Shown: positions 32,940 to 51,682 of the stretch, in pieces
Position numbering within the stretch: position 1 is the first letter of the stretch
Layout of the letters: each line of letters starts with the position of its first letter
IMG/VR virus record: IMGVR_UViG_2651869781_000017
Span: 1-51,682 of that record
Length of the DNA stretch: 51,682 nucleotides
Source of the DNA: a virus
Taxonomy: Duplodnaviria > Heunggongvirae > Uroviricota > Caudoviricetes
Direction: 5' to 3' (one strand)
Position numbers and translations under genes: made by a program
Notes under the pieces: generated by a model
The model's database searches: none
Seen by the model: only the letters and a program-made list of their open reading frames with translations
What the model was told of the DNA's origin: nothing

Positions 32940-34271
32940 ATGGCTACGTGGCAACAGGGTATTAATTCTGGTGGTTTTCTTGCTGGCATCGGTACGCAAA
33001 ATGAGAATGCGCCAAAGGCAAGCGACATTAACGCAACGCTTGGCCTGATCCGCGAAAACAATGAACTGGCTCGCTCAGGTGCAAATAACGTTGGTCTGAC
33101 CGCGTTACGTGGTCTGGCTGGAGTTGCTGATATTTACAATCAGGAACAGCAACAGAAAGCTATTAGTGCGTTCAATAAGGTTCACGCTGATGCATGGGCT
33201 TCTGGTGATCCATCTGGACTATTTAAGTTTGCCCAGGAAAATCCAGCGTTTGTTGCACAGGCACAACAGGCGTTTTCCGGTCTTAATGAGCAGCAACGCA
33301 ACGATATGGGCGAGTTAGCCATGAGGGCTAACGTCGCTCTTTCTCAGGGACCGGAAGCCTACAGTAAATTCATTACTGACAACAAGGACGGGTTAAATCG
33401 TGTGGGTGCGAATGCTGACTGGATGATTCAGACAGGTATTCAGAATCCAGAGCAGCTATCACACATGCTGACTACTATGACGCTAGGGGCTGTTGGTCCG
33501 GATAAAATGCTGGATTATCAGGATAAGATGGTTGGTCGCCAACTAGAGAAAGGGAGATTGGATGAAAGCATCCGTCAGGCTGATATGGAGAATGCGAGAG
33601 GATGGGCAAATATCCAGAACGCTCAACTAGACAGGGCTCAGCGGGCACAAATGCATAATGATAACGTAGCCCTGAAGTTGCAGGAATTAGGGATGAAACA
33701 ACAGGAAAGCGGAAAGATTGACCCAAAACTTGTTCGAGATCTGAATAGTGATATTAATGGGTTCTCAAAGAATTATTCTGCAATGCGCAGTGCTTCTGAC
33801 AACCTACAAGCCCTTGGGAAGCGCAACACTCCAGCCGCGCAGTTGGGAATGATTTTCAACTATATGAAATCGCTGGATCCGCAATCTGTGGTACGCGAAG
33901 GTGAGCAAGTGCAGGTAAAACGCACTGATGGAATATTCGGCACACTTGGTAACTATGTTAGCCAATTATCTAACGGCAAGATGCTGAATAATGAGCAAGT
34001 CCAGGACTTAATCAACACCTCAAAACTGATGGCAAATACTGAAGGCCAAAAGTTTAATCAGCAAATGGATGATTATCTTTCAACTTATGGAGATTCTCTC
34101 CCCAGCGGACTAACTAAGCAATTGCAATCCAGAAAAGCCAAGCTGTATGAAGATATTCAGCAGCCTGCACAACAACAGAGCAATAACCAACAACCGACAA
34201 ATACCCAACAGCAGCAGAGTCAATCCGGATCATATACCTCAAAATCAGGCATTCAATTTACGGTGGAATGA
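32940..34271 (+). CDS. ejection protein (gp20-like)
   Basis: 443 aa; synteny. Confidence 0.7.
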
Positions 34272-36394
34272 TGAAAGTAACTGCAAACGGTAAGACATTT
34301 ACCTTCCCTGACGGTACGAGCACGGAAGATATTGGCTCCGCCATTGATGAGTATTTTGCTGGTCAGGCTGTTCAGCAACAAACAGTTAATCAGGCCAATA
34401 ATGAACAAGCACGTGAAGAACCATCATTGATGCAACAAGCTGGCGATTGGCTCACTGGTGGTCAAAGTGCAGGGCAAATTGCAGAACAGGCTGGTCGTGG
34501 TCTGGTAAACATACCATTTGACGTATTGCAGGGTGGCGCAAGTCTGATTAATGCAATCAGTCAGGGGCTTGGTGGGCCAAAAGTATTGGATGATGTCTAT
34601 CGTCCAGTCGATCGACCGACAGACCCTTACGCGCAAGCCGGTGAAACAATTGGTGGGTATCTCCTGCCAATTGGCACAGCGGCAAAAGCTGCTGGAGCGC
34701 CAGCAAAGCTCGCTGGAGATATCGGTTCCGCAGGAAACATGATTGCAGGTTCTCTTGCTGATGCTGCAAATCAGGAGGGCGACTTTGCACAAAATGCTGC
34801 CATTAACGGTGGTATCAATATTGGTGCTCAAGGCGTTCTTTCAGGTGTCGGGCGCGTTATTGCGCCAAGGGTTTCACAGGCTCTTGGTGGTGCAGCACTG
34901 AATTCTGCTAATGATGTTTCCAGGATGGCAAAGTCAGGTGCTGGGCGTCGGTCAATTGCCAGTCAGGCCGCTAATGTGTCCGAAGATGTAGCAAAAGCGG
35001 CTGAGTCTGCTGGAATTGATATAAACGCATTAACACCAGGAATGCGATCTGGAAGTCGTGGAATTGCACAAGCTGAAGGCGCATTGGCATCAACACCAGG
35101 AATTGTTCAGGACGCCCATCAGGCAGCATTTAACGAAATATCATCAAAGTTAAGTCGAAACCTTGATGAATTTGGGGCCGCATCTGGAACGGCATCAGAA
35201 AAAAGTGCGGCTATAAAACAAAGGATTCTTCAAAATCTTGATCAGATGAAGGATGCCGAGCGCGCGGCATGGGATGACGTGCGGTCAACAATGCCAAATC
35301 AAAAAGCAAGAATGCTAAATGGTAATGCCGTTATTCAGGCAGAGCGATCTGCTGGCATACCACTTACTCCTGAAATGAAACAGTTTGTTCAGGCAAACAA
35401 TCAAGGTGGAGTAACATTTGATGGCATGAAAGCATGGAGAGCGAAATTTGCTGATGCGGAGCAAAAATATAAGCGTAGCGGAGAGGCAAATGCGGCAAGG
35501 AGAGCAGGGGAAATACGCCGGGCAATTACTGATGATATGCGCACAATGGCGGAAAACGGCGGATTTCTTGATGACTGGCAGAAAGCTAATGATCTGTCTA
35601 AAGCGAGGTTATCAGCACAAGAGAGTGCAGAGTCTGTTTTCGGGCGTGATTTGGCAACAGATGCACTGATTACGAATGGAGTAAAATCCCTTCAATCATC
35701 GTCAGCTAAAGGTCTTAATGGTCCTGCTGGGTTCCATTCTATGATCCGCGCGCTGCCAGAATCAGAGCGTGTTCCTGCTATATCATCAATGTTGCAAGAT
35801 GCTATCTCGCATGGTGTACGTGGTGGCAAAGCTGATGCAGCAGGAATTAACCATATCGCAGGGATACTTACCCCACAAAATGTAAAAGCCATTAGCAGAT
35901 ATTCCTCAGATCTCGGAAGAATTGCTGATGCATATGGCACTCTTGCAAGAGCGGCAGTGAAACCTCAGCAGTATATTGAAAGAACAGGGAGAACTGCCAA
36001 TGTACTACGCGATCTGGATGCTGGTTTATCCAACGTCACATCAACAGTGTTAAATGCAATTGCCAACTCAACATCAGGTGCCATTGTTGGTGGCGCTGGA
36101 GGGGGTATTGCAGGCGCTGCCGCGGGTGCTTTAGTTGGCGCCGGGTTAAAAGGTGCTGTATCTAAAATTGCCACCACGCGTAGCGGTCGATATGCGATAG
36201 AGAAAGCAGTTCAGGAAGCCACGAAAGCAGTAAGAGCTGGCGGAAGTAAAGAAGCATTAGCGGCGGCGGAACGCAGATTTATGGCAAATAAAGCCGCCGT
36301 AAAAGCAATACGTGATGCAGTTGGAAACGAAGAGTTCAATCGCTTAGCGAGGGCTGGCATTGTAGCGTCGCTAAGCGGAATAGCACAGGAGTAA
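34268..36394 (+). CDS. ejection protein (gp16-like), enlarged (708 aa)
   Basis: Synteny; Ala/Gly-rich; about 100 aa longer than P22 gp16 as remembered. Confidence 0.7.
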
Positions 36395-36718
36395 TTAATC
36401 ATCCATGGATGGATTGAGCTTATCTCGTGTTGATGTGGCGATTTGTCCTACATTCCTAAGCCAAGATTTCAAATCCTTGATATTGTCATTGATTTCATGA
36501 ATATCTTCTTTTTTTAGTCTGTTAATATTATTCTCAATAATTTCAATGGATTGCTCAATATCAGATATAGTGAATGATAGTTTGTTCTTCTCATCTTTTA
36601 TTGAGTTTTTAAGTGCTTCGTTCTCAGTCTTGAGGTCAGATATCTTTTGTTTTAAAGATGCCAGTTGGTACTGAACCACAATGAGTGCGATAGCTATCAC
36701 GATAACTGTTGTATACAC
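36395..36718 (-). CDS. N-terminally anchored membrane coiled-coil protein (107 aa), AT-rich cargo gene
   Basis: N-terminal TM (YTTVIVIAIALIVVQY) followed by K/E/N-rich coiled coil; GC far below prophage average. Confidence 0.55.
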   Translation of the reverse strand: MYTTVIVIAIALIVVQYQLASLKQKISDLKTENEALKNSIKDEKNKLSFTISDIEQSIEIIENNINRLKKEDIHEINDNIKDLKSWLRNVGQIATSTRDKLNPSMDD

Positions 36719-36739
36719 ACAAATCTCCTTAGTTAGTAG

Positions 36740-37075
36740 CTATTTGGTAACCAAGGCAATAAACAGCGGAGCAAGGATTGCAGATATCATGAGGGCGATA
36801 AGCCACTTCTGATTCTCGTCCATCTTATCTGCTAGGCGACGCTCCATTCCGTGCATGTCGCCACGGATGCCAATCAACTCTTTTCTAGTTTCTGATATTA
36901 GCTTTTCTTGGTTGGCGGCAATCGTTTCAATGCGGGTCATTCTACTGTTCATATCTGATCCTCCTCCATTGCCACCTCCATGTGCTGGCTCTTCTGAGTC
37001 TTCAATTCCGATGGGGGCAAATTCGCTATTCGGAAAAGGATTGTCAGCATCGTAAGCCAACTTCAACTTAGACAT
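36740..37075 (-). CDS. tail-anchored membrane protein (111 aa) with Gly-rich N-terminal region
   Basis: C-terminal TM (WLIALMISAILAPLFIALV); start overlaps the stop of the upstream Zn-ribbon gene. Confidence 0.55.
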   Translation of the reverse strand: MSKLKLAYDADNPFPNSEFAPIGIEDSEEPAHGGGNGGGSDMNSRMTRIETIAANQEKLISETRKELIGIRGDMHGMERRLADKMDENQKWLIALMISAILAPLFIALVTK

Positions 37076-37433
37076 TGCTGTTTTTCTCCCTTAGATACCA
37101 GCTTAACACAACACCTGTGTTGTACTGCATAATGTATCCGCAATGCTTGCAAATTACATGATAAGAGTAATTTATTGGGTTGAATGATTCATCTTCGTTT
37201 TTTATATATTCACCATAATGGGCATGCCTACCCATGATGTCTTTTCCATTATCCTGATTTACAAATTGAACTTGAGGGACAACCATTTCAGACTGCCCGC
37301 ACATTGGGCATTCGTCTGGAACACCTTTAGCTCTCAAGAAAGAGTCGAGAACCTTTGTAGTTATAGACGATAGCGCCTTGCGATATTCAGCCTCTCGCAG
37401 TTGATCGTCTGAGTATCCTGAATTGTCACTCAT
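37068..37433 (-). CDS. zinc-ribbon protein (121 aa; CPMC...CKHC)
   Basis: Two CxxC pairs; ATGA overlap with mnt stop implies translational coupling. Confidence 0.55.
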   Translation of the reverse strand: MSDNSGYSDDQLREAEYRKALSSITTKVLDSFLRAKGVPDECPMCGQSEMVVPQVQFVNQDNGKDIMGRHAHYGEYIKNEDESFNPINYSYHVICKHCGYIMQYNTGVVLSWYLREKNSNV

Positions 37434-37681
37434 TTTTCATCCTTACCATACATGGTCTTTAGCGTCTCAACATCGCGTTCAAGATCTATCAATCGTGATG
37501 CTATAGTTGCAAGGTCTAGTGCTTGAATGTGTTTATTTTTTTCGGTCCACGCTTCAAGTGCCGCGACCATCTCAGCATTTAATGAACGAGAATTAGCCTC
37601 AGCCAGTTCAATAAGACGTTCCTTTATCTCTACAGGAAGCCTCAGATTCACTTGAGGGTTTTTGTACTTACGATCAGACAT
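37430..37681 (-). CDS. mnt: Mnt-like ribbon-helix-helix repressor
   Basis: 83 aa; N-terminal RHH (VNLRLPVEIKERLIELAEANSRSLNAEM) parallels P22 Mnt; divergent from arc-ant. Confidence 0.75.
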   Translation of the reverse strand: MSDRKYKNPQVNLRLPVEIKERLIELAEANSRSLNAEMVAALEAWTEKNKHIQALDLATIASRLIDLERDVETLKTMYGKDEK

Positions 37682-37786
37682 CGGCGCATCCTGAATAATT
37701 TTTTACCACAGGATATGTAGGTATCTATTGACTATCAATGCGTACCTAAATACTATGTATGCGTACCACACACAACGGAGGATGCA

Positions 37787-37927
37787 ATGAAGGTAAAAAC
37801 ACTGCGTATGCCAGAGAAGCTAGAAAAAATTCTTGAAGAAAAAGCAAAGGAAGAGTGCCGCTCATTCAGCGCAGAAGTAATTAAACGGGTGCTGGACAGC
37901 CTGAGGAGAGAGGGGATAACGGTGTGA
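37787..37927 (+). CDS. arc: Arc-like ribbon-helix-helix repressor (46 aa)
   Basis: MKVKTLRMPEKLEKILEEKAKEECRSFSAEVIKRVL...; small RHH directly upstream of ant. Confidence 0.7.
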   Translation: MKVKTLRMPEKLEKILEEKAKEECRSFSAEVIKRVLDSLRREGITV

Positions 37928-38025
37928 TTCGCTTGGATGCGGCAAAGAAATCAAAACAGTGAAGCCCCAACTGCGGGAACAGTCAGGGCTTCGGTATCGT
38001 AAAACCACGCATAGGAATTAACGAC

Positions 38026-38949
38026 ATGAAAAGTATAGCAACAGCAGTATCTACTATCAATGTACCATTCCACGGCGCAGAGCTTTATGTTGTCAATCAC
38101 AACGGCGAACCGTATACCCCAATGAAACCTATCGTTGAGGGAATGGGGCTAGACTGGAAATCTCAACATAAGAAGATTTCTCAACGCTTCTCGAAGGGTA
38201 TGGTGGAAATCACCATACCTTCTGCCGGTGGGGTGCAAGCCATGATTTGTATGGCTTTACGAAAATTGGCAGCTTGGTTGAACAGCATCAGTCCTAACAA
38301 AGTCCGCCCTGAAATCCGCGACAAGGTAATCCAGTATCAGGAAGAGTGTGACGATGTGCTCTACGACTACTGGACTAAAGGCCATGTAGTTAACCCACGC
38401 AAAGCTAAAAAGGCGTTGCCGGGTAAAATCACCACTGAACAGCAGGAAGCCATTAAACAACTCGTCATGAGTCGCGGTCAGTCTCTGCCAAAAGAAAAAC
38501 AGGCTAAGGCGATGATCACCATGTGGTCGTCACTGAAATCCCATTTTGGATGTTCGTACAAAGAAATCAGTGAGGAGCAGTTTACCGAAGCACTATCACT
38601 TGCAGCTAGAGTTCCACTTGAAGGTGAGTTCATTGGCAAACAAGAGAAGAAAACCAACGAGCTTTCTGCAAAAGAAGCAAACAGCCTTGTATGGTTATGG
38701 GATTATGCCAACCGTTCGCAGGCATTATTCCGCGAACTGTATCCGGCGCTAAAACAAATTCAATCGAACTATTCCGGCAGATGTCATGACTGCGGTTATG
38801 AGTTCTCCCGTATTATCGATATGGCGAGAGATGTTTTAATCAACCATACACGAGATGTTGATATTAATGAGCCAGACGGACCAACGAATCTTTCCGCATG
38901 GATGAGACTTAAGAATAAAGAATTACCTCCTTCAGTACATAACTACTGA
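38026..38949 (+). CDS. ant: antirepressor Ant
   Basis: 307 aa; AntA-type N-terminal domain; immI position downstream of arc. Confidence 0.7.
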   Translation: MKSIATAVSTINVPFHGAELYVVNHNGEPYTPMKPIVEGMGLDWKSQHKKISQRFSKGMVEITIPSAGGVQAMICMALRKLAAWLNSISPNKVRPEIRDKVIQYQEECDDVLYDYWTKGHVVNPRKAKKALPGKITTEQQEAIKQLVMSRGQSLPKEKQAKAMITMWSSLKSHFGCSYKEISEEQFTEALSLAARVPLEGEFIGKQEKKTNELSAKEANSLVWLWDYANRSQALFRELYPALKQIQSNYSGRCHDCGYEFSRIIDMARDVLINHTRDVDINEPDGPTNLSAWMRLKNKELPPSVHNY

Positions 38950-39049: not shown

Positions 39050-41179
39050 ATGACAGATATCACCGCAAATGTTGTGGTAAGCATGCCTTCGCAACTCTTC
39101 ACTATGGCTCGTTCTTTTAAAGCCGTAGCTAATGGCAAAATTTATATCGGAAAAATTGACACTGACCCGGTAAATCCAGGAAACCAGATCCAGGTTTATG
39201 TGGAGAACGAAGATGGCTCTCATGTTCCTGTTTCGCAACCAATCATCATTAACGCTGCCGGATATCCGGTATATAACGGACAGATTGCCAAATTCGTTAC
39301 CGTGCAAGGCCATTCTATGGCTGTTTATGATGCATATGGTGCGCAGCAGTTTTATTTTCCTAATGTGTTGAAGTATGATCCTGATCAGTTTAGTTTGAAG
39401 CTATCCATGCCTGATGGGGCAGGTGAAATTGGATATCAATATAGAAATAATGTTACATCTTCTTACCGAAGAGTAAACGACAAGCTTGATGAGCATGTCA
39501 GTATTCTGGATTTTCATAGAAATGTTGATGGTGGGTTAATCCTTCCTGCACAGAATGTTGATAGTAGACCATTCTTTGAGCGAGCACTTGTATACATTGA
39601 ATCAATAGGCGGTGGCACTATTTATGTACCGGCTGGAAAATACTATTTAAATTCATACAGTGAAATAGGGATCATAGGCACTGTCTTTAATGCAATATTG
39701 CCACTTTGCGATAATGTTAAAATTTTATTGGATACAGCGGCAGAAATAGTTGTCGGTACTTTTTTTGATGACAAGCCTTTCCAGTTGTTTTTTGGTTCTT
39801 CGCCTTTGAAACCAAATCTTGTAGACGCTGTAAATAATGTTGTCATAGAAGGTGGTACAATTAGCTTTAGTGGTTATAGCAGTATGATGAGAACAGCACC
39901 ACTAAACAGAATTGCATTGCAGACAGGAAATATAGATAATCTTCGCATATCAAATGTTACCTTTCGTGATGGTGACTTAACAAACGCTTTAGCGATAGGA
40001 TACAAAAATCTAGGCAAATATGCAGTTGTTGAGAATTGCAACTTTATTGACCTTATTCAGAACGGAATGAATAACGATCATAGTAGTATCTACCTTAATG
40101 CGTCACACTCTACAATTAATAATTGCAACTTTATTTCCACGATAGATAAAGGAAGGAAGATCGCTTGTGCTGTTGAGTTGCATAAATCTTTCAATAGTTG
40201 GATTGGTGGTAATGTTGATGGCTATACACGTGGTGCTTTTATAAACGCTATTGATACTGAATCATCTCTTGTAGAAAACACCAGAATTGAATCAGTTACC
40301 GCTAGAATACTACACCAGTTTGTAGCGTACTCGTTCGGTTCTAATGGGGTTATAAGAAATAGTCTTGTTTCAGGAAATAATGTAACAACTCTTGCGAGAA
40401 GTTCATCCGATACAGATCCTTCAGAATTTGGACCTTGCAGTCTCTGCGGTTGGGTGTCATATGGTAGTTTTGCAAATGCAGAAGGCCTAAATATCGTAGT
40501 TGAAAATAATACATACATTGTTGATGAATCAGTACAAGATTCATATAGTTGCGTATTTTATGCAATCGCAAATGTTTCAGGTGTTACTGTTCGTAGAAAC
40601 AGTGTTGGAGCGAGAACTTTTTTCTACAACCCAACCCCATCACTAAATCTTTACAATTGCCATTTTTATGAAAACAGGTTTGAGGAATCGTATGTACAGA
40701 GCGGTTCAGAAAGATTTTTATATGATCTTAACTGTAATCGTATTTCTCAAAGCACTTTCGAAGCATTTGTTCCAATAAAAACAACTGCACTGACAGGAGT
40801 TATGAGGATTGACCCATCTACGCTCGGTCCGCAGAATCGTTTTGTTGTCGATACTCAGAATACAGATAATATTGAACACCCATTTATTACAAATTTGCCA
40901 GGTTTGCTCGGGCAGGATGGTACAACTTACTCATATCCGCAAAAATGCGATGTCAACATCGGAGTTGGTTCTACACCTGTCCTATCTGTGATAAGTCCGG
41001 AAATAAGCACTGTAGACAGAGGACAGATTCTTAACAACGCGAACCTTCCATCTGGTTATGTCGCTCCGTCGTCGTTAATGAAGTACGATTCTACGCTTAC
41101 AGGAGCTGGTGTCACAGTATCAGGGACGCCATCCGGTAATTATCATGACGTGAGGATTCTACTGATAAGAGAACGTTAG
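39050..41179 (+). CDS. tailspike protein (P22-type N-terminal head-binding domain plus distinct receptor-binding domain)
   Basis: N-terminal 110 aa [34 protein letters not shown]...VLKYDPDQ matches P22 gp9 head-binding domain; rest diverges. Confidence 0.88.
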
Positions 41180-41392: not shown

Positions 41393-41439
41393 ATTCGTAA
41401 TGCGAAGGTCGGAGGTTCGACTCCTCTTATCGGCACCAT
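41393..41439 (+). repeat. attR: duplicated 3' 47 bp of thrW
   Basis: Exact copy of 1399-1445; lacks the tRNA 5' half so it is not a functional tRNA. Confidence 0.85.
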
Positions 41440-42263
41440 CAAGAAAATCAATAACTTAGCTTAACTTCTCTAAGAAATTGTATCTTCTGTTATCACTTAC
41501 AAACGCCTATACGTTGTTATGGGCTTTTGGTAGTTTAACACGTATGGGCGAGTAGTTCCCAGGCTCAACCTCGTAACAAGTTCCTTTGAAGCTGGAAGAC
41601 GTGCCACCGTCTCTAAACCTTCTACCAAAACTCTTAGCAAGATGTTCCACACCTGGCGCGGTGTCCAATGATGCTACACGTCGTGAGACGTTGCAGAGGA
41701 TAAACAGGCTAAATGATGGGAAGAGTTTTAAGTGCAATAGTGGATTAAAGCCCACCTCTTCAAAACCTAACTTGATCGGGAAAGAATCAAGCTCTAGCAC
41801 GGTTTCGTCCACCGGAGTACAACGGGTGCCTGATAAGAGAAGAACTGCTAAGACTTCATAGCTTTTGTGAAAAAGCCCTTTTTAGTGGATACGCCTACGG
41901 CGCTTATTTTTTGGTATAACCATCAAAGGCGCTTTATGGCTCCTATTGTCTTGAAAATGTATCTTTACTTGTATTGTGTTTTATGCGTAGTCTCCCTGTG
42001 TAGTATGTAACTTGTTAATTTTCATATGAATACAGAGGCACACGATGAAAAACATTGCAGCTATCAAACGTAATAACCGCAAGATTCACGCTCGTAAGTT
42101 CCTGTCTACGCCAGAGGGAAAAGCCTGGCTAGAGCGTAAACAGCGAGAGAACGAAGAAAGAAAACTCCTTAGTGAGTTGAAATGGCTTAAGGATTGAATC
42201 ACCAGTAGGCGCATAACACATCCAGCGATCAAAGATGTGTTTATGCGCCTGATAGTGAAATTA

Positions 42264-42422
42264 TTAAAGTTTTTTAGTTAATGTAGCCATTGCATGAACG
42301 ATGATCGCTAGTGAATCGATTTTATCTCGAGGGGTAAAATAGATGAGGTATATGATGGTAACAATTACAGCTAAAGTAATTGTGGTTCTGCAGGTTTTTA
42401 AAATGGATGAGATAAAGCGCAT
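42264..42422 (-). CDS. small hydrophobic protein (52 aa)
   Basis: ORF with G-rich RBS; single hydrophobic helix (TITLAVIVTIIYLIYF). Confidence 0.3.
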   Translation of the reverse strand: MRFISSILKTCRTTITLAVIVTIIYLIYFTPRDKIDSLAIIVHAMATLTKKL

Positions 42423-42748
42423 AGATACCCCCTATTGATTTAACAATAGCAAAGTATCATTTATTTTTTATTGCACGCAACATGCAAATTTTCACATATA
42501 ATAGTTTACTATTCACTTTGTATGGTGTCAACAAGATGATGTGTTGTTTTGTTTGATTTGTTCAAGATAATGTTTCATTTTCTCATCTATATAACTTGTG
42601 TTTTAGATAATTTCACTAATTGTAAAAGTTACGTATTGCTTAATAGCTACCTTTTTATCTGAAATCGGCGCAGACGTGATCAATGTTTAACGCGAAGATC
42701 AGCGGCGTCAGGTCCACGCAGCGACAATTCTCAAATATCAAGGAGGCA

Positions 42749-43288
42749 TTACGCCTCCTCTTCTTCCTTCTTGATACGTTGCACCGTTGAAGGAGCAACA
42801 TTAAAGCTCTCGGCGGTTTTACGCACTGACAGGCCATCAGAAAGGGCTTTCTTTATACCTTCTCGATCCACTGCTTTTCCATTACCACGTTTTGTAGGAT
42901 TGACGGCTTGCGCTTCTCGTTTACGTTCTAACATCAGTTCACGTTCACACGTTGCAACTGCCGACAACATCGTAAGCATCATCTTTCCCATCGCGCTTGT
43001 AATGTCTGCAATGATTCCTTCTTTGTGAAATCGAACAATTACACCTCGATTATTAAGTTGTTCAACTAAAGCAAGGATGTCTAAGGTGTTACGTCCTAAA
43101 CGGTCGAGAGAGTGCACGTGTAAGGTGTCGCCTTCTCTCAGATAGGCTAAACACGCTTGTAAGCCTGGGCGGTTAGTGTCTTTACCAGACAGCTTATCTT
43201 CAAAGACTTTATCGAGAGTTACTCCTGCAAGCTGGCGATCAGTGTTCTGATCTACAGTGCTCACACGCTTATAACCGATATTGCTCAT
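42749..43288 (-). CDS. small serine recombinase (resolvase/invertase family)
   Basis: 179 aa; catalytic N-terminus GYKRVSTVDQNTDRQ, LDRLGRN motif, C-terminal HTH. Confidence 0.85.
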   Translation of the reverse strand: MSNIGYKRVSTVDQNTDRQLAGVTLDKVFEDKLSGKDTNRPGLQACLAYLREGDTLHVHSLDRLGRNTLDILALVEQLNNRGVIVRFHKEGIIADITSAMGKMMLTMLSAVATCERELMLERKREAQAVNPTKRGNGKAVDREGIKKALSDGLSVRKTAESFNVAPSTVQRIKKEEEEA

Positions 43289-43940: not shown

Positions 43941-44052
43941 GGTAGGTCACTGTGAACTAGGGGGGGTAGTTCACTATGAGCTAGGGGGGTAGTTCACTAT
44001 GAGCTAGGGGGTAGGTCACTGTGAACTAGGGGGTAGGTCACTGTGAACTACA
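43941..44052 (+). repeat. five tandem 22-24 bp iterons (GGTAGGTCACTGTGAACTAGGG family)
   Basis: Five direct repeats in two sequence variants, followed by an A/T-rich tract with a (TA)n run near 44100-44127. Confidence 0.8.
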
Positions 44053-45152
44053 ATAAGACTATTAATAAAACTATATTAGATTATTAATTAGATCATAATA
44101 ATAATATTCTTTATATCTATATATATATATATGATCTTTTGCCTTTCGGCGTTAGCTCCACTCTCTGGCAAGCAGCCTTACTCCGCTACCTTTCGGGCTA
44201 CGTTGGCTGGCCTCGTTCCGCTCACACCGAAAGCAAAGCGTTACTTTCTTCGTGTAACTATCGTTGGCGATAACGCCCACGAAGAAATACTATTGCGCTG
44301 TGCGCAGTAAGAGTAATCACCTAACCAATCATACTGATTGCTTACGTGTTAACTCTATCTCTCTACCTCGTAATTACCCTCCTACACTTAATAACTCTCG
44401 TTATTCTCTGTAGTTGTGTAATTACTCGAAGAGAGAGCGGCTAAAGCTCAATTACACTCTGCTTTCCTCGTGTAATTTCACTAAGCCTCAATACAATTCC
44501 ACTTCCTACATTCTGTAGTCGTGTAATTGTTTTCGGTGGAAAAGCCAGAGGCGACACCGAAAGAGAATTCTGATCTTATTAATCTTATCTATCTTAGTTA
44601 ATCTTCTTACTTACTTTATCTACTTTATTATTAATAATAGCTTTATAAGCTCTCTGTAGCTCTCTGACGCAAGAAACAGCATTCAGGAAGGGAATCACCT
44701 TAGAAAAGTGTTCTTTGCGTCATAATGTGTTTTATGAAGGATTCAGAGGTGTTTCATAACAGGAGTGTATAGAGGATACTTTAATTAATTAAAAATAAGG
44801 GGTCTAAATGCTTCTCTAACAGCATTAAGCAGGGTAGGGAATGGAAACGCATTGCCTACATATATAAGCTCACTACAGGGCTTTACAGAGCGTTTTATAA
44901 AGTGACTCTCTATCTTATATCTACCATTACCTTTTCATATACCTAACAAATACAAAATAAGCCCCTTAAATAAGCCTCTGGCGAGCTAAACAGCCATTAG
45001 ATAAGGGAATGTATTGCTTTTATCAAAATCTCGTTAGAACGCGTTTTAGAGCGTTTTAGCGGATAATGAAGAATAGCACTACACAGAAGAGCACGAATTG
45101 CTAAGAAAAAATGTAAGTGCATGAAAAAGATCAGATTTTTTGTGAAAAGGTA

Positions 45153-45181
45153 TTGACAAATGTTTCTTTATATGTAATAAT
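45153..45181 (+). promoter_or_regulatory. sigma70-like promoter (TTGACA, 17 bp, AATAAT) upstream of 45292 operon
   Basis: Consensus -35 with 17-bp spacer to an A/T -10 hexamer. Confidence 0.45.
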
Positions 45182-45291: not shown

Positions 45292-45480
45292 ATGAAATGG
45301 TTTACACCGGAACACGTCGTCGCGGCATTTAAAAAAGGTGAGCTAACACGCCACCAAGTAGTAATGAATCGTAATATGGCAAGGAGTCGAGGTTATCCAG
45401 AGCGTGAAAAATGTTTCGATGCAGCACTAAAAATTATTGATGAACTAAGAAAAAATGAAAAAGAATCTGAAACAGAGTAA
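45292..45480 (+). CDS. hypothetical small protein (62 aa)
   Basis: ORF with AGGAG RBS. Confidence 0.4.
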   Translation: MKWFTPEHVVAAFKKGELTRHQVVMNRNMARSRGYPEREKCFDAALKIIDELRKNEKESETE

Positions 45481-45499
45481 AGAATAGAAGGAGAAAACT

Positions 45500-45667
45500 A
45501 TGAGCGAAACTAAGAAACCAATTCCGCGCACTTACCTACACGTTGACCCTGAAATCTTCAAGGTTTTATTTGCTGAAGCCAAGAAAAGGCAAATTATGGT
45601 CAGTGATTTGATGTTAGAAATCATTACTGAAGCAGCAGAGAACATCAAACAAAAAAAGGGTAAGTGA
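45500..45667 (+). CDS. putative ribbon-helix-helix DNA-binding protein (55 aa)
   Basis: Beta-strand then two helices pattern (RTYLHVDPEIFKVLFAEAKKRQIMVSDLMLEII); GGAG RBS. Confidence 0.4.
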   Translation: MSETKKPIPRTYLHVDPEIFKVLFAEAKKRQIMVSDLMLEIITEAAENIKQKKGK

Positions 45668-45718
45668 TCCTCATTCACTTTAGTAGCGCATTAAGCGTGA
45701 TTTATAAGGAGATTTTTA

Positions 45719-46411
45719 ATGATTAATCAACTAACTTTTACAAAACACTATGACACGTTTGATAATGTATCAAAGATTTATTCTGATAAATTCCCTCAAG
45801 GAAAAGATTTAGATCTATTACATATTGTGCTTTATTTTCGATTCCTTAGTTATCAGGAAAACAACCTTAATTGTTATGAAAGTCACGAAACATTAGCTAA
45901 GATTTTTAAGTCTTCAGCGTCAACAATTAAACGTAAGATAAACGATCTTAAAGAGATGGGATTATTAGAAACATCCCCACATCCTGATCCGTATATTTCA
46001 TCTTTGATTTACAATGCTCTCCCTCTCACAGATGCACATATTACTCCCCCAGGAGAATCATCACTCTCTGATCTTTCTGAGGCAGAAGAAGCACAGGAAC
46101 AACCTAAAGGCCATAAACAGCCTTCTTTTGATGTTCTTGATGATGATTGGGATACGCCTTTACCCTGGGAGACGGAAGAAACACCTGTTTCATCAAGTGA
46201 AAAGGTAGCTAATGATAATGAGGAGGATGTGTTAGAGAATTTTGCCTCTCTTATCATCCAGGAGAAGACTACAAGAACAGGAGGGGCATCATTTATTGAG
46301 TTTGCAAATTCACTAGCTTATAGACACGGGCTAAAACGACCAAATGGTATTGAGGCATATTTTTCTAAGCATTACCCAAATGTGTATGAAGACTTTGATA
46401 TTCCATTTTAA
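45719..46411 (+). CDS. hypothetical protein with N-terminal HTH and acidic linker (possible replication or regulatory protein)
   Basis: 230 aa; HTH-like segment (HETLAKIFKSSASTIKRKINDLKEMGLL); AGGAG RBS. Confidence 0.4.
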   Translation: MINQLTFTKHYDTFDNVSKIYSDKFPQGKDLDLLHIVLYFRFLSYQENNLNCYESHETLAKIFKSSASTIKRKINDLKEMGLLETSPHPDPYISSLIYNALPLTDAHITPPGESSLSDLSEAEEAQEQPKGHKQPSFDVLDDDWDTPLPWETEETPVSSSEKVANDNEEDVLENFASLIIQEKTTRTGGASFIEFANSLAYRHGLKRPNGIEAYFSKHYPNVYEDFDIPF

Positions 46412-46422
46412 TAAGGAGGGTT

Positions 46423-46701
46423 ATGATTCAATATTTAGTAAAAAATCAAGTAGACAGAATTCAGTGTAATGACACAGGAAAACGCATCTACGAAACACTT
46501 GCTTACCTCTATAAAGGAAAGCCAACACCGCTAAAATATAGCGATGTGTTACACCGAGCAGGGTGCTCTGAAGATGGTTTAAAATTCTGGCTGAAACAGC
46601 TATCAAATTTCGGTGTTATAGAGATTAAAGAATTATCTTTCTCTACATTCAATCTCAAAAGACTGGATAAAGAAATAGTATTCATCTATTCCACTCTCTA
46701 A
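46423..46701 (+). CDS. hypothetical protein (92 aa), possible winged-helix
   Basis: ORF with GGAGGG RBS. Confidence 0.35.
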   Translation: MIQYLVKNQVDRIQCNDTGKRIYETLAYLYKGKPTPLKYSDVLHRAGCSEDGLKFWLKQLSNFGVIEIKELSFSTFNLKRLDKEIVFIYSTL

Positions 46702-46833
46702 AATCTCTCTATGTAATTAAAATATAAAAGGAAAACATTATTATGATAGTAGCTATGTATTGGTTATTGTTCTTTCTCACGTTAGAAACATATTTCGGGG
46801 TGTTTTCCTTTAAAAGAAAAGGAAAAGTAAATA

Positions 46834-47241
46834 ATGGCAAAAAGAAAAAACAACGTTGTTAAGAAAATCGGTGATTCAGCTTCTCTTCTAAGTAAACCTA
46901 AATCTATTCTAAGACGTAAAGACTTTAAAGAGCTAGTTACGCTCTCCAAGCAAAATAGCGCCCCTGGCGAATGGAAAACAGAGATCATAGAACATTCTCC
47001 CTCTGTGCCTTGTGGAGATGAATTTAACGCCTTACAAGAAATCTTATCTTCAACACCTGGCGTATTCTGGAAACCTAGAAAAAGAAAAGAGTATATTGTT
47101 GATAGCTCTGATTTACGCAAATACCAGATTTTAGGATTTGAAGACTATAACCACTACGTTGGTTATCTCGCCACCAATGGCCTAAATAATTTAGTTCCTG
47201 AATTCCATTTAGATAATGATGATCACTATGGAGACTTTTAA
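46834..47241 (+). CDS. hypothetical basic protein (135 aa)
   Basis: ORF with AAGGAAAAG RBS. Confidence 0.35.
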   Translation: MAKRKNNVVKKIGDSASLLSKPKSILRRKDFKELVTLSKQNSAPGEWKTEIIEHSPSVPCGDEFNALQEILSSTPGVFWKPRKRKEYIVDSSDLRKYQILGFEDYNHYVGYLATNGLNNLVPEFHLDNDDHYGDF

Positions 47242-47242
47242 T

Positions 47243-47578
47243 ATGAACAAAAACACGTATGACACAATTTATTCACTAATTAATTATTATGAGGATGATT
47301 ACCTCCTGCCTTTAAACCGTGCTGAACTTGAAGCACACAAAAACTCCACGCCAGCGGCACTAAATGAGGCGTTTAAACACTGGGATTTAGCTGTGAATGC
47401 CTTTGAGATGCTCTGTAAGCGTGTAGAGATGCTCTGTAAGCGTGAAAACGCATACCTGACAGCCGATCAGATATGGGAGCTATCAAACTGGATAGAAGAT
47501 ATTGAATCTGATGTTCGCTATGTGGGAGATGGCCTTATCGAACTCGCTCAACGCTTAGCTGTTATCACAGAAGAATAA
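47243..47578 (+). CDS. hypothetical protein (111 aa) containing a 21-bp tandem duplication
   Basis: ORF contains in-frame direct repeat GAGATGCTCTGTAAGCGTG x2 (EMLCKRVEMLCKRE). Confidence 0.35.
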   Translation: MNKNTYDTIYSLINYYEDDYLLPLNRAELEAHKNSTPAALNEAFKHWDLAVNAFEMLCKRVEMLCKRENAYLTADQIWELSNWIEDIESDVRYVGDGLIELAQRLAVITEE

Positions 47579-47607: not shown

Positions 47608-47636
47608 TTGACATTTCATCTATTGTATGTTAATAT
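47608..47636 (+). promoter_or_regulatory. near-consensus sigma70 promoter (TTGACA, 17 bp, TAATAT)
   Basis: Exact -35 consensus, 17-bp spacer, strong -10; upstream of 47922-49540 gene block. Confidence 0.55.
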
Positions 47637-47921
47637 AATTATATAGGGTGATTATTTTTCCTTTATTGGTTCGATATTAAAAATTCTTCTTGTCGTTAAA
47701 GGGGAGTAAAATCTCCGCTCCCCGCTTCTCCTCCTCCTTAAGTGTCATTATTACCTCTTTTTTCCTTTGTTATGCATACATCTTGGAGTATGCATAACAT
47801 AGGGTAATTACATAGGTACAAGTTAATAAAAGGCGGCTCTAAATGCTGCCTTTTATTTTGCCCGTTATACAACTTAAAAGTTGTATTTCTTACTTTAAAC
47901 AAGGTAACAAGGTTTATATAA

Positions 47922-48134
47922 ATGTTGTTCTTAAATGATAAAGAGCAAATCATCAAGTATCGCGATGAAATGCTAAAGATCAATCCACAAATTACCGAAA
48001 TGGTAGCTAAATACGCTGGGTGTTCTGTCGAGGAAGTAGAAAGATGTGTTGAAAAATATTTTTCTCCTTCTTCTCCGTCTACACCTTCCCTTAATGAATT
48101 AATCAAATTAAAAGCTAAGGAGATTACTAAATGA
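47922..48134 (+). CDS. hypothetical protein (70 aa)
   Basis: ORF; stop overlaps next gene start. Confidence 0.35.
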   Translation: MLFLNDKEQIIKYRDEMLKINPQITEMVAKYAGCSVEEVERCVEKYFSPSSPSTPSLNELIKLKAKEITK

Positions 48135-48493
48135 TTATTGATTTAGACACTCTGTTTCCAGTTCGAAAGACTTTCACAGATATTGTAAGTTATTGTACTG
48201 ATCCGTTTGCCTCTGTAGAAAACAAGGTTTTTGCTTCTCTTCCTGCTGATGTTGAATGCGGAGACTTGATCACCAGCACTGGCGCTAAATATGTATCAGG
48301 AGATGATATCTATGTTGTTATGAGTGAATTTGTAACGGCTGGAGACAACAAGCCTGTAGATGTGCTACGTAGCAATGCTGGTCTTGTCTGCATCAAAGCT
48401 GATGCGCTGAATGCTGTAAGTGAAGCAGCAAAAACAGCATTAATTAAAAAAGGCTTCCAGCTTGAAGGCTTCCACTCTGTTTTCACTTCTTAA
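48131..48493 (+). CDS. hypothetical protein (120 aa), possible virion accessory or decoration protein
   Basis: ORF immediately upstream of capsid-like gene. Confidence 0.3.
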   Translation: MIIDLDTLFPVRKTFTDIVSYCTDPFASVENKVFASLPADVECGDLITSTGAKYVSGDDIYVVMSEFVTAGDNKPVDVLRSNAGLVCIKADALNAVSEAAKTALIKKGFQLEGFHSVFTS

Positions 48494-48511: not shown

Positions 48512-49540
48512 ATGATTCTAGGTAATGATTACGTTGATTTAGCTCCTTTGTTCTCTGCGCATAGCACTAGAAACTATCTGCTTTCTACTCTCGACTTCAC
48601 TGATCCGGTGGGCGTTAGTTCTCATAAAGTAGCTGTTTCCCAGCTTGTCGAAAGCAACGAATCTCTCTTTAACAAAGAGACAAGCCGTTTTAGTTCTGAA
48701 CACAATGTTACTAAGCGAGAACAAGGTAAAGAATGGCTGATTGAAATCCCTTACTTCCTGCGTGAAGATGTGATCCGTCCTTCTGATGTTCAAGGCAAAC
48801 GTAAACCTGGCACTGATTTTCAGGAAACACTCACTGATATTTATGCTGACTATGTTGCTAAACACCACGTAGCGTATCAGCGCACTAAAGAAAGCGTATT
48901 GGCTGCATCTCTGTTTAGCGGTAAAACTTACACGCCTAAAACTGATGATGTGTTAATTGAGTGGGGCAAGCTGTTTAACGTATCAGCTATGAAAGCCACT
49001 GTGAACGCTTCCAGCACTGACACCACGAAGATTTTTAAAGAATTTGATCAGATTGCTACTGACATTATCGAGAAAGCACAAAGCCAGGCGGCTGCTGTAG
49101 AGCGTATTGTTGTTTTCTGTAAGCCGGAAGCCTTCTCTGCAATTCGATTCTCTGCGGGTATGGCAAACGCATTCCAGTATGTAAGCCCACTGGAAGAAGG
49201 GAACGTTGTGTATCAGCGTCGTGACCTGCTACCAGGAGTGACAGCGTTCACTATTCCAGGAACTAACATTGATGTTATTAAACTGGTAGATCCGCTACAC
49301 CTTGCACATATGACCGCTGACGCTGTAGCCGTGCCTAAATTCGCTAAAGGCTCTAACGTCTACCAGGCCATCTATGGGGCGGCTTCCAGCACCTTTGAAC
49401 TGATCAATGCCGCTCCTGCTGAGGTTTACAGCTACAGCTATGAATCTTCTCGTGGTGATGCTGTTAACGTTGTTACAGAGAATAGCCAGATGGTTGTAAA
49501 CCACGGTGTAGGCTTCTCCGTTCAAATCACTGTTAAATAA
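48512..49540 (+). CDS. putative major capsid protein (possible T7 gp10-like, HK97 fold)
   Basis: 342 aa; local resemblance to T7 gp10A (ours RIVVFCKPEAFSAI versus T7 RVFYCDPDSYSAI) and similar length; from memory only. Confidence 0.4.
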   Translation: MILGNDYVDLAPLFSAHSTRNYLLSTLDFTDPVGVSSHKVAVSQLVESNESLFNKETSRFSSEHNVTKREQGKEWLIEIPYFLREDVIRPSDVQGKRKPGTDFQETLTDIYADYVAKHHVAYQRTKESVLAASLFSGKTYTPKTDDVLIEWGKLFNVSAMKATVNASSTDTTKIFKEFDQIATDIIEKAQSQAAAVERIVVFCKPEAFSAIRFSAGMANAFQYVSPLEEGNVVYQRRDLLPGVTAFTIPGTNIDVIKLVDPLHLAHMTADAVAVPKFAKGSNVYQAIYGAASSTFELINAAPAEVYSYSYESSRGDAVNVVTENSQMVVNHGVGFSVQITVK

Positions 49541-49625
49541 TATTTAACGTGTAATAGAGGCGTGGCGTGTATTCACGCTTCGCCTTTTTTTTATTTATTT
49601 TTAAATTTTGAGAGGTGATTAAAAT

Positions 49626-49829
49626 ATGGAAGTGATTCTGAAATCAAAAAATGGTGTCCACGTACATTTAGATGCTAATGATTCTAGAGGCTTGTTAAAT
49701 CTGAAATATCTATGTTCTCTCTTAGATGTTCCATATGAAGGAGTAAAAGCCCGTATGTTCAGACTAAACGAGAGTATTGATCAGGCTCTACACCATTTCT
49801 TAAGTAAAGAAGGTGGTAAAAATGATTAA
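49626..49829 (+). CDS. hypothetical small protein (67 aa)
   Basis: ORF between capsid-like gene and large downstream ORF. Confidence 0.3.
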   Translation: MEVILKSKNGVHVHLDANDSRGLLNLKYLCSLLDVPYEGVKARMFRLNESIDQALHHFLSKEGGKND

Positions 49830-49843
49830 TAAGGGGATTTTAA

Positions 49844-51682
49844 ATGTTAGAAATTAACACTTCTAAAATTAAGAACACAGTTACATTTAGTGTAGATAAA
49901 GACAGCTTGAAAAAAGCGAAAGACTCTATTACAGGCTTAAAGGAATTCGCAGAAAATATCAAGCCTGCTAAATTAAGATTTGATACTGTCACTAAAGGCT
50001 ATAAGAAAGCACAAAGTGAAGTAGATAAGATTGCTCAACAGAAAGCGAAAAACGAAAAACAGAATCAAAGAGCACAAGCTGCCGCAGCAAGAGCACAGGC
50101 AAGGCAACAGCAACAAATAGCAGCACGTAAGGAGAAAGCTGAACTAAAGCTTTTAGACGTTGGATCAAGCATTAGTGCAATGCACCGTCTTTCTGTAGCT
50201 GAACAATACAAAGCTATTGCACAGGCTAGAGAGATAGCAAAACAATATGAGCAAGGGGCTATCTCGCTTGCACGTATGAATAGCCAGATGAAACGCTTAC
50301 AACAGCAACAACGTAAGATTAATGGCAACAGAAAAGCTCAATTAGCCCCCGTTAAGGGAGGATCAGGGAATTCCGCCACTATGGGCGCTCTGTTATTTGG
50401 AGGCGCTACGGCGGCTGCTGGCGTGATGGCTGTAAGTAAAACCGCCGAGTTTGTTAGTAAAAGTTTCGCTAACGCAGAGACACAAGGAGAATTAATCCAA
50501 CGTGCAAGGCTTGGCGGTGTAGACGTTAACCAGATGTATAACATTACAGAATGGGCGTATAAAAACGGCGTTGACTCTATGATGGGTGATCAAGGGGCTA
50601 GAAAATACCTGGATCAGATGAAAGATGTTAGGGAACGTGCTACCAAATCTTATGACGAGGCTGAATATGTAGTTGATAAGAAAACAGGGAAAGGCATATG
50701 GAAAGGCGGTGATAACGGTATTAATGAACTTCTAAACATCGGTGTTATTAACAAAAGCGACCTTAAAAAATTTGCTGATAATCCAGCCGGATTAATTTCT
50801 AAGGCTGTTAATGGAATGATGAAAAAAGGGTTTTCAGATTCTCAAATTGGACAACGTTTAGAAGACCTGGGCGATGATTTGATGCTTACGTCAAAATATT
50901 GGCAACGTTCCGTTAAAGATGTACAAGAAAGTATTAATCAGCAAAAAGCCTCTGGAAAATGGCTAACAGAAACACAGCAAGACTCTATCGTTAAATTCAG
51001 AGAACTAAACAGACAGCTTTCGCAGCTTTCTGATGCAAGACAAGTAGCATTTGTAGACGGGTTTATGAAATCTCTCGATCCAAAAGTAACGGAAGAGTTT
51101 TTGAAAAACCTTTCTAATCTCACTCCGTATTTTACGAAGCTGGGAGAAGCTACAGGAAGTCTCTTTGAAGCTATTATGAAGATTGTAAACTGGTTTAATC
51201 GTAATGATGATAAGACAGAGGCTATTCAGAAAAATTTAGGTGATGCACCGCCATTAAGCAATGAAGGAATGAAACAGAATCTTTCTAATCTCGTTCCTGA
51301 CCAATATAAAGGCGCTGGCACTGCAACAACTACACCTGATAATAGTCATTCTCTCTTTAACACGATTAAGGGATTGCTTTTCGATGATAAATCTTCTGTG
51401 TCAGATGTAAAAATGTCAGTCAGCGAAGCACCGATAACCAATCTCAAACAGGGTGCTTTAAATAATCTTGCAATGACAACTCCGGCTTATAATTTATCTC
51501 CTGTATTCAATCTGAATCCGACATTTGAAGTGGTAACGGAGGTTCCGCTTACTATTAATTCTGACACGTCCAGATTAAGCGATTATGTGGATTTTACAGC
51601 GAGAGCAAGTCGGGATAGCTTCTTGAAATCATTAACATTAACCAGCTTATCAGGACAATCTAACGGCGGGGAATTCCCGCCA
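49844..51682 (+). CDS. large coiled-coil protein, 3'-truncated by window end (at least 613 aa)
   Basis: Open frame from ATG 49844 to window end with no stop (absent from ORF track because no stop); Q/A/R-rich coiled coil then Gly/Ala hydrophobic segment. Confidence 0.5.
   Translation, partial: MLEINTSKIKNTVTFSVDKDSLKKAKDSITGLKEFAENIKPAKLRFDTVTKGYKKAQSEVDKIAQQKAKNEKQNQRAQAAAARAQARQQQQIAARKEKAELKLLDVGSSISAMHRLSVAEQYKAIAQAREIAKQYEQGAISLARMNSQMKRLQQQQRKINGNRKAQLAPVKGGSGNSATMGALLFGGATAAAGVMAVSKTAEFVSKSFANAETQGELIQRARLGGVDVNQMYNITEWAYKNGVDSMMGDQGARKYLDQMKDVRERATKSYDEAEYVVDKKTGKGIWKGGDNGINELLNIGVINKSDLKKFADNPAGLISKAVNGMMKKGFSDSQIGQRLEDLGDDLMLTSKYWQRSVKDVQESINQQKASGKWLTETQQDSIVKFRELNRQLSQLSDARQVAFVDGFMKSLDPKVTEEFLKNLSNLTPYFTKLGEATGSLFEAIMKIVNWFNRNDDKTEAIQKNLGDAPPLSNEGMKQNLSNLVPDQYKGAGTATTTPDNSHSLFNTIKGLLFDDKSSVSDVKMSVSEAPITNLKQGALNNLAMTTPAYNLSPVFNLNPTFEVVTEVPLTINSDTSRLSDYVDFTARASRDSFLKSLTLTSLSGQSNGGEFPP

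Follow-up and report, generated by a model that had tools for sequence, protein, structure and literature searches.

A capsid gene beside a P22-like prophage of Escherichia coli belongs to a separate integrated element, probably a satellite of phi92/phAPEC8-type lytic phages

We analyzed a capsid-like gene at positions 48512..49540 of a 51,682-nucleotide stretch of DNA (IMG/VR virus record IMGVR_UViG_2651869781_000017, positions 1 to 51,682; hereafter the window), which is a piece of the Escherichia coli chromosome that begins with proA and thrW (tRNA-Thr CGU, 1369-1444). The gene encodes a genuine HK97-fold major capsid protein (MCP) of the lambda-E family (PF03864) and is part of a separate integrated element of 12.4-13.5 kb (roughly 12.5 kb). 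We estimate a probability of about 60% that this element is a satellite of the Stephanstirmvirinae, lytic myoviruses with large genomes of about 147 kb (phi92, phAPEC8, inny type). The element is inserted site-specifically at the thrW 3' end and has a tyrosine integrase, a Rep-like protein next to an iteron-type origin, and a late block that is conserved and by homology encodes counterparts of three or four helper virion proteins: the MCP, possibly a decoration protein, a tape measure protein (TMP), and often a tube initiator. We are nearly certain that the gene is a functional capsid-protein homologue inside a conserved mobile element. Within the window, the structural block consists of the following open reading frames (ORFs).

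47922..48134, + strand: ~70-aa ORF, first of the structural block; position kept in all 7 variants, 22-29% identity; dN/dS 0.13
48131..48493, + strand: ~120-aa ORF, always directly 5' of the MCP gene, the position of the decoration gene gp123 in phi92
48512..49540, + strand: MCP homologue, 342 aa, ATG start; identified by PF03864, PHROG 29, PDB sequence matches, and fold search
49626..49829, + strand: ~67-aa ORF directly 5' of the TMP gene, the tail-assembly-chaperone position; in all variants; dN/dS 0.04
49844..51682, + strand: TMP, 613 codons within the window; the ORF exits the window end

The 342-aa protein matched the Pfam family PF03864 (Phage_cap_E, the lambda gpE family; E=4.7e-14; 52.6 bits, the cut-off being 22.9), its residues 19-341 aligning to positions 14-329 of the 329-position profile, and the same family is precomputed on all 23 aligned members of the MCP family. 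It also matched PHROG 29 ('major head protein', E=4.4e-15). Among PDB sequences, the best single match was the solved capsid protein of Pakpunavirus P7-1 (9zbi, E=1.4e-10), and phi92 gp124 was matched over the full length (5-338) with E=1e-6. An AlphaFold model built from the family alignment (pTM 0.63) contained a confident spine helix (residues 107-136) and A/P core. When this model was compared with the PDB using Foldseek, the top 25 matches (E<=1e-3) were all phage capsid proteins of the HK97 fold, with PhiTE, the ICP1 coat protein, Bas63, and Sf14 first and lambda gpE in 15th place. Profile, sequence, and fold searches thus agree with an earlier note on this DNA, made from the letters alone, which had called the gene capsid-like; the fold check proposed in that note returned HK97-fold capsids only. 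The note had also tentatively placed the protein in the T7 gp10 family, and this we rejected: the 342-aa protein had no Pfam, PHROG, or PDB sequence match to T7-type capsids, and T7 gp10 (3j7w) appeared in the fold search at rank 34 (E=4e-3, TM 0.28), a remote match that reflects the generic HK97 fold. As judged by sequence, the MCP is closest to phi92 gp124 and the Pakpunavirus capsids, not to T7 gp10. An AAGGA Shine-Dalgarno motif upstream of the ATG at 48512 is a plausible ribosome-binding site.

To the left of the gene, thrW is occupied by a complete P22-like prophage bounded by exact 25-nt repeats of the thrW 3' end (the 25-mer at 1420-1444 recurs at 41414-41438, with 0 such recurrences expected by chance). 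The capsid gene lies beyond the attR of this prophage, in a separate low-GC segment (36-40% GC) whose right end is outside the window. In complete genomes the element continues beyond the TMP gene with a 237-aa protein and then a tyrosine integrase, and it is flanked by direct repeats of the tRNA 3' end of 20-22 nt, the distal copy lying just past the integrase gene. Elements inserted in thrW in three strains have a repeat of 20-21 nt and a size of 12.4-13.2 kb, and in an O26:H11 strain a 22-nt tRNA-Gly repeat flanks a variant with a different integrase (L006 among our comparison loci). The conserved gene order runs from attL through variable cargo, a small recombinase (- strand), a gene-free gap of 1-2 kb, two small ORFs, the Rep-like helix-turn-helix protein, further small ORFs, and a second gap to the ~70-aa ORF, the ~120-aa ORF, the MCP, a ~65-aa ORF, the TMP, the tube initiator (some variants), the integrase (- strand), and attR. 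Pfam and PHROG scans of the element ORFs, and ORF size, revealed no portal, terminase, scaffold/protease, sheath, or tube gene, and the only element ORFs above 300 aa are those of the MCP, the TMP, and the integrase. The remark in the note that no packaging genes accompany the capsid gene was therefore correct, and the TerS, TerL, and portal genes present in the window belong to the separate prophage. Could the gene nonetheless be a T7 gp10-family member, or work together with the neighboring P22-like prophage? The shared HK97 fold and the physical adjacency are in line with this, and we consider it most improbable: similarity to T7 gp10 in sequence or profile is absent, the prophage, which encodes a 417-aa coat protein unrelated to the MCP, is not within the att boundaries of the element, and in other strains the element occupies thrW without any prophage or adjoins a lambda-like one.

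The remaining proteins of the structural block were compared with phage proteins. The TMP matched PHROG 16051 (E=1e-53) and the TMP of phiWec188 (27% identity over the full length, E=3e-56), and its phage relatives are only lytic Stephanstirmvirinae myoviruses of ~145-150 kb (phi92 and phAPEC8 type, Justusliebigvirus, Phapecoctavirus), at 27-37% identity. The 237-aa protein encoded 3' of the TMP gene matched Phi92_gp135 (E=2e-79), other myovirus 'tube initiator' proteins, and the Pfam family Dit_like, and is 50-62% identical to Phapecoctavirus and Justusliebigvirus proteins. Between the MCP and its Stephanstirmvirinae counterpart, identity is about 22% over the full length. Hidden Markov models of the element families recovered the phage proteins with E=1e-26 for the MCP (gp124), 1e-98 to 1e-114 for the TMP (gp134), and 1e-67 to 1e-72 for the tube initiator (gp135). 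In phi92 the genes for the decoration protein (gp123) and the MCP (gp124) are followed by eight genes for neck, sheath, tube, and chaperone proteins and then by those for the TMP (gp134) and gp135; therefore, the structural block of the element, which has homologues of gp124, gp134, and gp135 in this order, is a collinear subset. The element differs from the phage in lacking the eight intervening genes and the remainder of the ~148-kb genome, and in the divergence of its proteins (MCP 22%, TMP 27-36%). Over its first ~25 residues the TMP hardly differs from that of phi92 (84-85% identity at the DNA level) and the rest of the protein is about 30% identical, which suggests that this end of the TMP has a shared contact partner that would be supplied by the helper. 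The earlier note had described the flanks of the capsid gene as small unknown ORFs and a coiled-coil giant; the small ORFs and the coiled coil stand, and the giant does not, the ORF being a 613-aa TMP. What the note overlooked is that this coiled-coil protein is the TMP of the same hijacking module. The TAA stop codon of the TMP of strain SF-468 reads GAA in the window (51671-51682) and the ORF continues (...GGEFPP), so that, given a downstream sequence like that of SF-468, the window TMP would be only 4 residues longer. The TMPs of the element have 609-613 aa and those of the phages 651-659 aa, from which a slightly shorter tail would be expected.

The two small neighbors of these genes gave fainter signals. 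The top profile matches of the ~120-aa ORF were the decoration proteins of phi92 and phiWec188, weak at E~0.3, and an hhalign comparison with the decoration protein aligned the C-terminal 30 aa only (E=0.03), both families ending in 'VFTS'. A profile search of the PDB with this ORF returned nothing relevant, and its AlphaFold model (pLDDT 43) was unusable, so no fold search was made from it. For the ~67-aa ORF no phage homologue was detected. The dN/dS values were 0.05-0.12 for the MCP, 0.16-0.22 for the TMP, 0.09-0.12 for the tube initiator, 0.04-0.23 for the small ORFs, and 0.10-0.23 for the ~120-aa ORF. This shows that every gene of the structural block is under purifying selection.

Upstream of the structural block, the element carries features expected of a replicon.

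43941..44132, no strand assigned: putative replication origin, with five tandem 22-24 nt iterons (43941-44055) and an AT-rich tract (44080-44132)
45500..45667, + strand: early ORF, 55 aa; identical protein in the lytic phages inny and muut
45719..46411, + strand: Rep-like initiator, 230 aa, with an N-terminal HTH_36 DNA-binding domain

The Rep-like protein matched PHROG 270 (replication initiation protein, E=2e-9) and HTH_36 (E=3e-5; HTH_36/DUF6945). In the equivalent gene-free gap, other variants have iteron arrays of different sequence that co-vary with the Rep type, and the iterons and the Rep-like protein together indicate what is probably a modular iteron replicon. Among more than 100 protein clusters (90% identity clustering) the N-terminal 139 aa of Rep are 100% identical, and the variation thus lies in the C-terminal ~90 residues, which are acidic and of low complexity.

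The replicon region also provides signs of contact with the lytic phages. The 230 bp at 45488-45717, over the 55-aa early ORF, are 98.3% identical to the lytic phages inny and muut (protein 100%); among 50,697 phage records, no others have this gene. In inny, the adjacent gene encodes gp184 (L003 4233-5336), a chimera of two Rep domains and a nuclease-type domain: residues 1-140 share 88% identity with the N-terminal DNA-binding domain found in Rep of variant L005 (strain PSS-10), residues 160-267 share 75% identity with the equivalent domain of the tRNA-Gly variant, and the C-terminus is a MUG113/T5orf172 nuclease-type domain. At the DNA level, the matches extend over 625 bp at 95.5% and over 261 bp at 90.8%. 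A protein of the Phapecoctavirus Mt1B1_P17 (QNJ49226, L013 1414-2400) has a first domain 99% identical to the Rep protein of another thrW variant (L007, strain CUVET24-CCU22) and a second domain 75% identical to that of L006, and gp154 of muut (L014 1228-2226) has a third, different first domain. The second Rep-derived domain is thus common to the inny, muut, and Mt1B1_P17 chimeras and the first one is swapped; other phages matched in the nuclease domain only. A precedent is Odn of phage ICP1, which joins a T5orf172 nuclease domain to an N-terminal domain 42% identical to PLE RepA (PMC8263062); PLE origins are its binding and cleavage targets, and it probably drives the swapping of PLE replicons (PMC8263062). 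The chimeras likewise appear to fuse a copy of a satellite Rep origin-binding domain to a T5orf172/GIY-YIG-type nuclease domain, and differ from Odn, as far as their sequences tell, in having two tandem Rep-derived domains and 75-99% identity to them as against 42% in Odn. By this analogy, they look like bivalent Odn-like anti-satellite nucleases. From the chimeras we infer that these phages come across the elements inside infected cells, to their own detriment.

To determine how widespread the element is, complete genomes and other records were compared. Of 5426 complete E. coli genomes, 554 (about one in ten) have a detectable module of MCP and TMP, and about half of these carriers match at only 60-80% nucleotide identity. 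MCP homologues of 56-65% identity occur in Klebsiella, Citrobacter, Enterobacter, Cronobacter, Kluyvera, Buttiauxella, and Scandinavium, and homologues of 37-41% identity in Serratia and Sodalis; the gene order of the Klebsiella, Serratia, and Sodalis elements is unchanged with respect to E. coli. In the thrW variant L007 the MCP is 16% identical to that of the window and its ~120-aa partner 22%, with a TMP of 63% identity; this MCP is homologous by hhalign (97% probability) and has no Pfam or phage tblastn match. The tRNA-Gly variant shows the reverse pattern of MCP and TMP divergence. The modules of the element are mosaic. A 9.4-kb contig in a 'Bacillota bacterium' metagenome-assembled genome (L022, JAEWTL010000083.1) encodes an MCP 73% identical to that of the window and is most likely mis-binned E. 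coli.

Because the family recurs and its structural block is under purifying selection, these data disfavor the degraded prophage that the earlier note had offered as its second possibility, that is, a decaying remnant that has lost portal, terminase, and most tail genes. Phage-derived structural genes do stand here beside an intact prophage, in the composite thrW/vat island region. Against a remnant, the Stephanstirmvirinae are lytic phages that lack an integrase module. One and the same minimal gene set is shared by many genera, down to 37% MCP identity, and recurs at two different tRNAs between intact att repeats. None of the genes is disrupted, dN/dS is 0.04-0.23, and the element has an iteron origin and Rep of its own. 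We regard such decay as very unlikely.

The first possibility of the note, a satellite-type element, gained strong indirect support from the att repeats, the integrase, the Rep protein and iterons, the architecture shared across genera, the purifying selection, the homology to one phage lineage, and the phage chimeras, all of which argue for it at the level of sequence. The element has the generic make-up of a satellite: it is integrated, flanked by att repeats, equipped with integrase, Rep, and iterons, and has only 3-4 structural genes. Its helper dependence is suggested indirectly by the homology to a single lytic lineage, the recent DNA exchange, and the Odn-like chimeras. If the element is a satellite of the Stephanstirmvirinae, infection by the helper would lead to its excision and to replication from its own iteron origin. 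The late block would then be expressed, possibly through terminator read-through, and the helper would supply portal, scaffold/protease, terminase, tube, sheath, and baseplate. The element MCP, with its co-evolving ~120-aa partner, would build a shell sized for ~12.5 kb, or would redirect the helper capsid to a small size in the manner of Ccm, and the element TMP and tube initiator would replace those of the helper, giving chimeric tails by analogy with PLE and ICP1. The outcome would be spread of the element together with interference with the phage, which would counter with Odn-like nucleases made from captured Rep domains.

Several observations weigh against this interpretation. The decoration role of the ~120-aa ORF and the chaperone role of the ~67-aa ORF are suggested by gene position, and the tube initiator is missing from some variants. 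The capsid lineage of the helper is less certain than its tail lineage, given the ~22% identity of the MCP and a best PDB match in a Pseudomonas Pakpunavirus. No small terminase was found in the element, and no mimic of a helper pac or cos site was found for the window element by blastn against the structural regions of phi92 and phiWec188 and against inny 1-50 and 100-147 kb, two-thirds of that genome, where the element matched only in the genes described above. IMG/VR contained no free contigs of ~12.5 kb, the matches being 19-76 kb long and mostly prophage calls from isolate genomes. No phage chimera matched the Rep type of the window itself (best 34%), and it is by analogy that we presume the chimeras to be active nucleases and the Rep domains to have passed from element to phage. 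Finally, we infer the excision, replication, packaging, and transfer of the element.

Some of the same observations would fit a non-transmissible anti-phage island in which the capsid, TMP, and tube-initiator homologues act as dominant-negative decoys of virion assembly and the integrase and Rep serve upkeep or amplification. Defenses that target assembly exist, namely Tab (PMC10884400), Tai (PMC11364771), and Rta; neither terS nor a pac mimic was found and no packaged ~12.5-kb genomes were seen; and homologues of 22-30% identity could co-assemble poorly. A decoy, however, would not require that MCP and TMP be full length and under strong constraint, or that the TMP have a helper-like N-terminus. 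Moreover, the element moves between genera and between tRNA sites, with integrases to match, it is similar in size to known satellites, and no known defense protein was detected (PADLOC found none among the small ORFs of the element). Known satellites join interference to transfer, so the decoy island, the main rival of the satellite interpretation, is partly nested within it; taken by itself, we find it unlikely.

A further question is how the satellite, if it is one, would use its MCP. In SaPIbov5, the protein Ccm is 24% identical to the helper capsid protein, sits at the pentamers of T=4 shells, and redirects assembly to small capsids (PMC8569155). The element MCP could similarly co-assemble with the helper MCP (e.g., as pentamers) and force small capsids, which would be consistent with its identity of about 22% to the phi92-type MCP and with an element that has no scaffold, protease, or portal of its own. 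Against this, the ~120-aa partner always accompanies the MCP and both diverge in L007 (16% and 22%), as fits an own shell with an accessory protein, and MCP divergence of 16-77% among variants with similar TMPs is hard to square with a single helper MCP. We therefore treat the Ccm-like variant as a doubtful option within the satellite interpretation.

The element was also compared with the known satellite classes. In the SatelliteFinder definition, a PICI has an integrase, alpA/merR/stl, a primase-replicase, a capsid morphogenesis gene, and a small terminase, and tail genes are forbidden; here the integrase is present, alpA, primase, and terS were unmatched in Pfam and PHROG scans of all ORFs, and the TMP and tube initiator are forbidden tail genes. 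The cf-PICI definition has 11 core components, among them TerL, portal, head-tail adaptor and connector, and protease, and likewise forbids tail genes; the element has only the capsid protein and the integrase, no ORF of portal or TerL size, and tail genes. The psu-delta-sid operon, alpA, epsilon, and alpha primase of P4-like satellites were not detected in it. These three assignments were rejected. The element nevertheless resembles the cf-PICIs in being enterobacterial and in having its own capsid protein with other virion parts stolen, and differs from them in that cf-PICIs carry a full head and packaging set and an int-alpA-primase left arm, whereas the element instead supplies the tail core. 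With SaPIbov5 it shares the absence of portal and terminase and an HK97 MCP homologue about 22-24% identical to that of the helper; SaPIbov5 differs in its Gram-positive host, temperate siphovirus helper, PICI backbone, and delta domain, and has no accompanying tail genes.

The closest likeness is to the PLEs, which are reported to be specific to a few Vibrio species. The PLE TMP, tail assembly chaperone, and baseplate hub are 20%, 20%, and 41% identical to those of ICP1, and chimeric tails were shown in 2026 (PMC12987554); PLE also remodels the ICP1 coat protein with an external scaffold (PDB 8g1r; PMC10945586). Like the element, PLEs are integrated, about 12-18 kb in size, exploit a large lytic myovirus, and have modular Rep/origin replicons. 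Both carry a divergent helper TMP and a baseplate-proximal protein (TMP/BhuB 20%/41% in PLE, 27-36%/50-62% here), and in both cases the helper lineage bears a chimeric nuclease of Rep domain and T5orf172. The element differs in its tyrosine integrase, its capsid-protein homologue, and its Enterobacterales hosts. No homology of its proteins to those of PLE was seen, PLE sequences not having been compared directly, and the likeness is one of architecture and predicted function, seen here in the genes. It is best read as a new satellite family, PLE-like, with a capsid-protein homologue added. We found no prior description of the element, or of any Stephanstirmvirinae satellite, in the literature, in which our coverage of subscription papers was incomplete. 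The more comprehensive proposal, that of an abundant and hitherto unrecognised enterobacterial satellite family on phi92/phAPEC8-type phages with its own capsid and tail core, hybrid hijacking of head and tail of a kind that no described satellite shows, and an arms race by repeated Rep capture, as a counterpart of PLE and ICP1, is in our judgment evenly balanced.

If this is true, a satellite family common in E. coli (~10% of complete genomes) is excluded by satellite finders that treat tail genes as forbidden. It would provide a tractable E. coli model of a satellite of virulent phages, a biology that has so far come largely from Vibrio (PLE, PICMI), and would join two strategies previously seen separately, a capsid-protein homologue (Ccm) and substitution of the tail core (PLE). 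The chimeras would be a second independent case of an origin-directed anti-satellite nuclease, with two swappable specificity domains, which makes 'guns for hire' domain capture testable. Phages of the phi92/phAPEC8 type are frequent candidates for therapy and biocontrol, and the element could alter their efficacy and host range on extraintestinal and avian pathogenic E. coli (ExPEC/APEC), in which it lies next to the vat island.

The remaining features of the element within the window are as follows.

41414..41438, + strand: attL, thrW 3'-end repeat, doubling as attR of the P22-like prophage; exact 25-mer
41439..42748, no strand assigned: variable left arm (cargo), small ORFs only
42749..43288, - strand: small serine recombinase (resolvase/invertase type), 179 aa, left of the origin gap
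45153..45181, + strand: sigma-70-like promoter of the early operon, TTGACA-17-AATAAT with extended TG, 11/12; consensus match only
45292..45480, + strand: early ORF, 62 aa, no family match
46423..47578, + strand: three early/middle ORFs of 92, 135, and 120 aa, no significant Pfam, PHROG, or PADLOC match
47608-47636, + strand: promoter-like site before the structural operon, TTGACA-17-TAATAT with TG
47830-47859, + strand: stable hairpin with U-run directly 5' of the structural operon (-18.1 kcal/mol, z=-5.9)
49557..49581, + strand: intrinsic-terminator-like hairpin past the MCP gene

In the second gap, the promoter-like site and the hairpin are about 190 nt apart, and together they possibly make the structural block a terminator-gated late operon; no conserved k-mer (at least 9 nt in at least 5 of 7 variants) was found upstream of this operon. 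Rfam detected no known RNA within the element other than a tRNA fragment at attL. The left arm is 98% identical to L001 (SF-468), L005, and L007 until about 42195-42308 and divergent thereafter, and its cargo differs in other variants (e.g., Dam methylase or YecR). Some variants (L001 18479-18521; L007 2952-2994), but not the window element, carry in their left arm a 43-nt sequence, GCTAGATTGCGAGAGGTGCTTAACGCGATTTTCAGCGCCCCCC, which is 95% identical to the non-coding positions 138625-138667 of inny (L016 38625-38667); it may be a shared cis-acting site.

The SF-468 orthologue of the serine recombinase matched PF00239 (Resolvase, E=6e-34) and PHROG 125 (DNA invertase, E=2e-55). In Klebsiella, Serratia, and Sodalis a tyrosine recombinase of ~185-205 aa occupies the same position (L008 2968-3585, L011 3138-3689, L012 3576-4133), which is a non-homologous replacement at one position. 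The small recombinase could serve to resolve multimers or to assist excision. An invertible switch made up of this recombinase and the gene-free gap was rejected, as there are no convincing flanking inverted repeats and the iteron origin explains the gap better.

The neighboring prophage has the following features.

1445-41438: complete P22-like prophage in thrW, bounded by the exact 25-nt thrW 3'-end repeats
1459..2619, - strand: prophage integrase
22551, 23023, 24504, 26811, and 27723: head and packaging genes TerS, TerL, portal, scaffold, and 417-aa coat, respectively
39050..41179: tailspike

Between the gene for a 708-aa protein (34268..36394) and the tailspike gene, this prophage contains a low-GC insert (36395-38949) with four small - strand ORFs (36395..37681) and a 307-aa + strand ORF (38026..38949), which may be moron or defense cargo. 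In strain CUVET24-CCU22 (L007 14070-21373), a P4-like satellite with integrase, reverse transcriptase, psu, ogr/delta, and Icd-like genes, clearly distinct from the element, stands in tandem directly after the attR of the element. Because of this tandem, thrW can be regarded as a stacking site for several satellites and prophages. Of the two flanks of the SF-468 element (L001 11524-16983 and 30872-35653), one encodes a 592-aa protein with AAA and dCMP-deaminase domains and a DUF4365 protein, both candidate defense genes. On the opposite flank lies the island of vat, the vacuolating autotransporter toxin gene, and the SF-468 element is therefore located within the region called the thrW/vat pathogenicity island.

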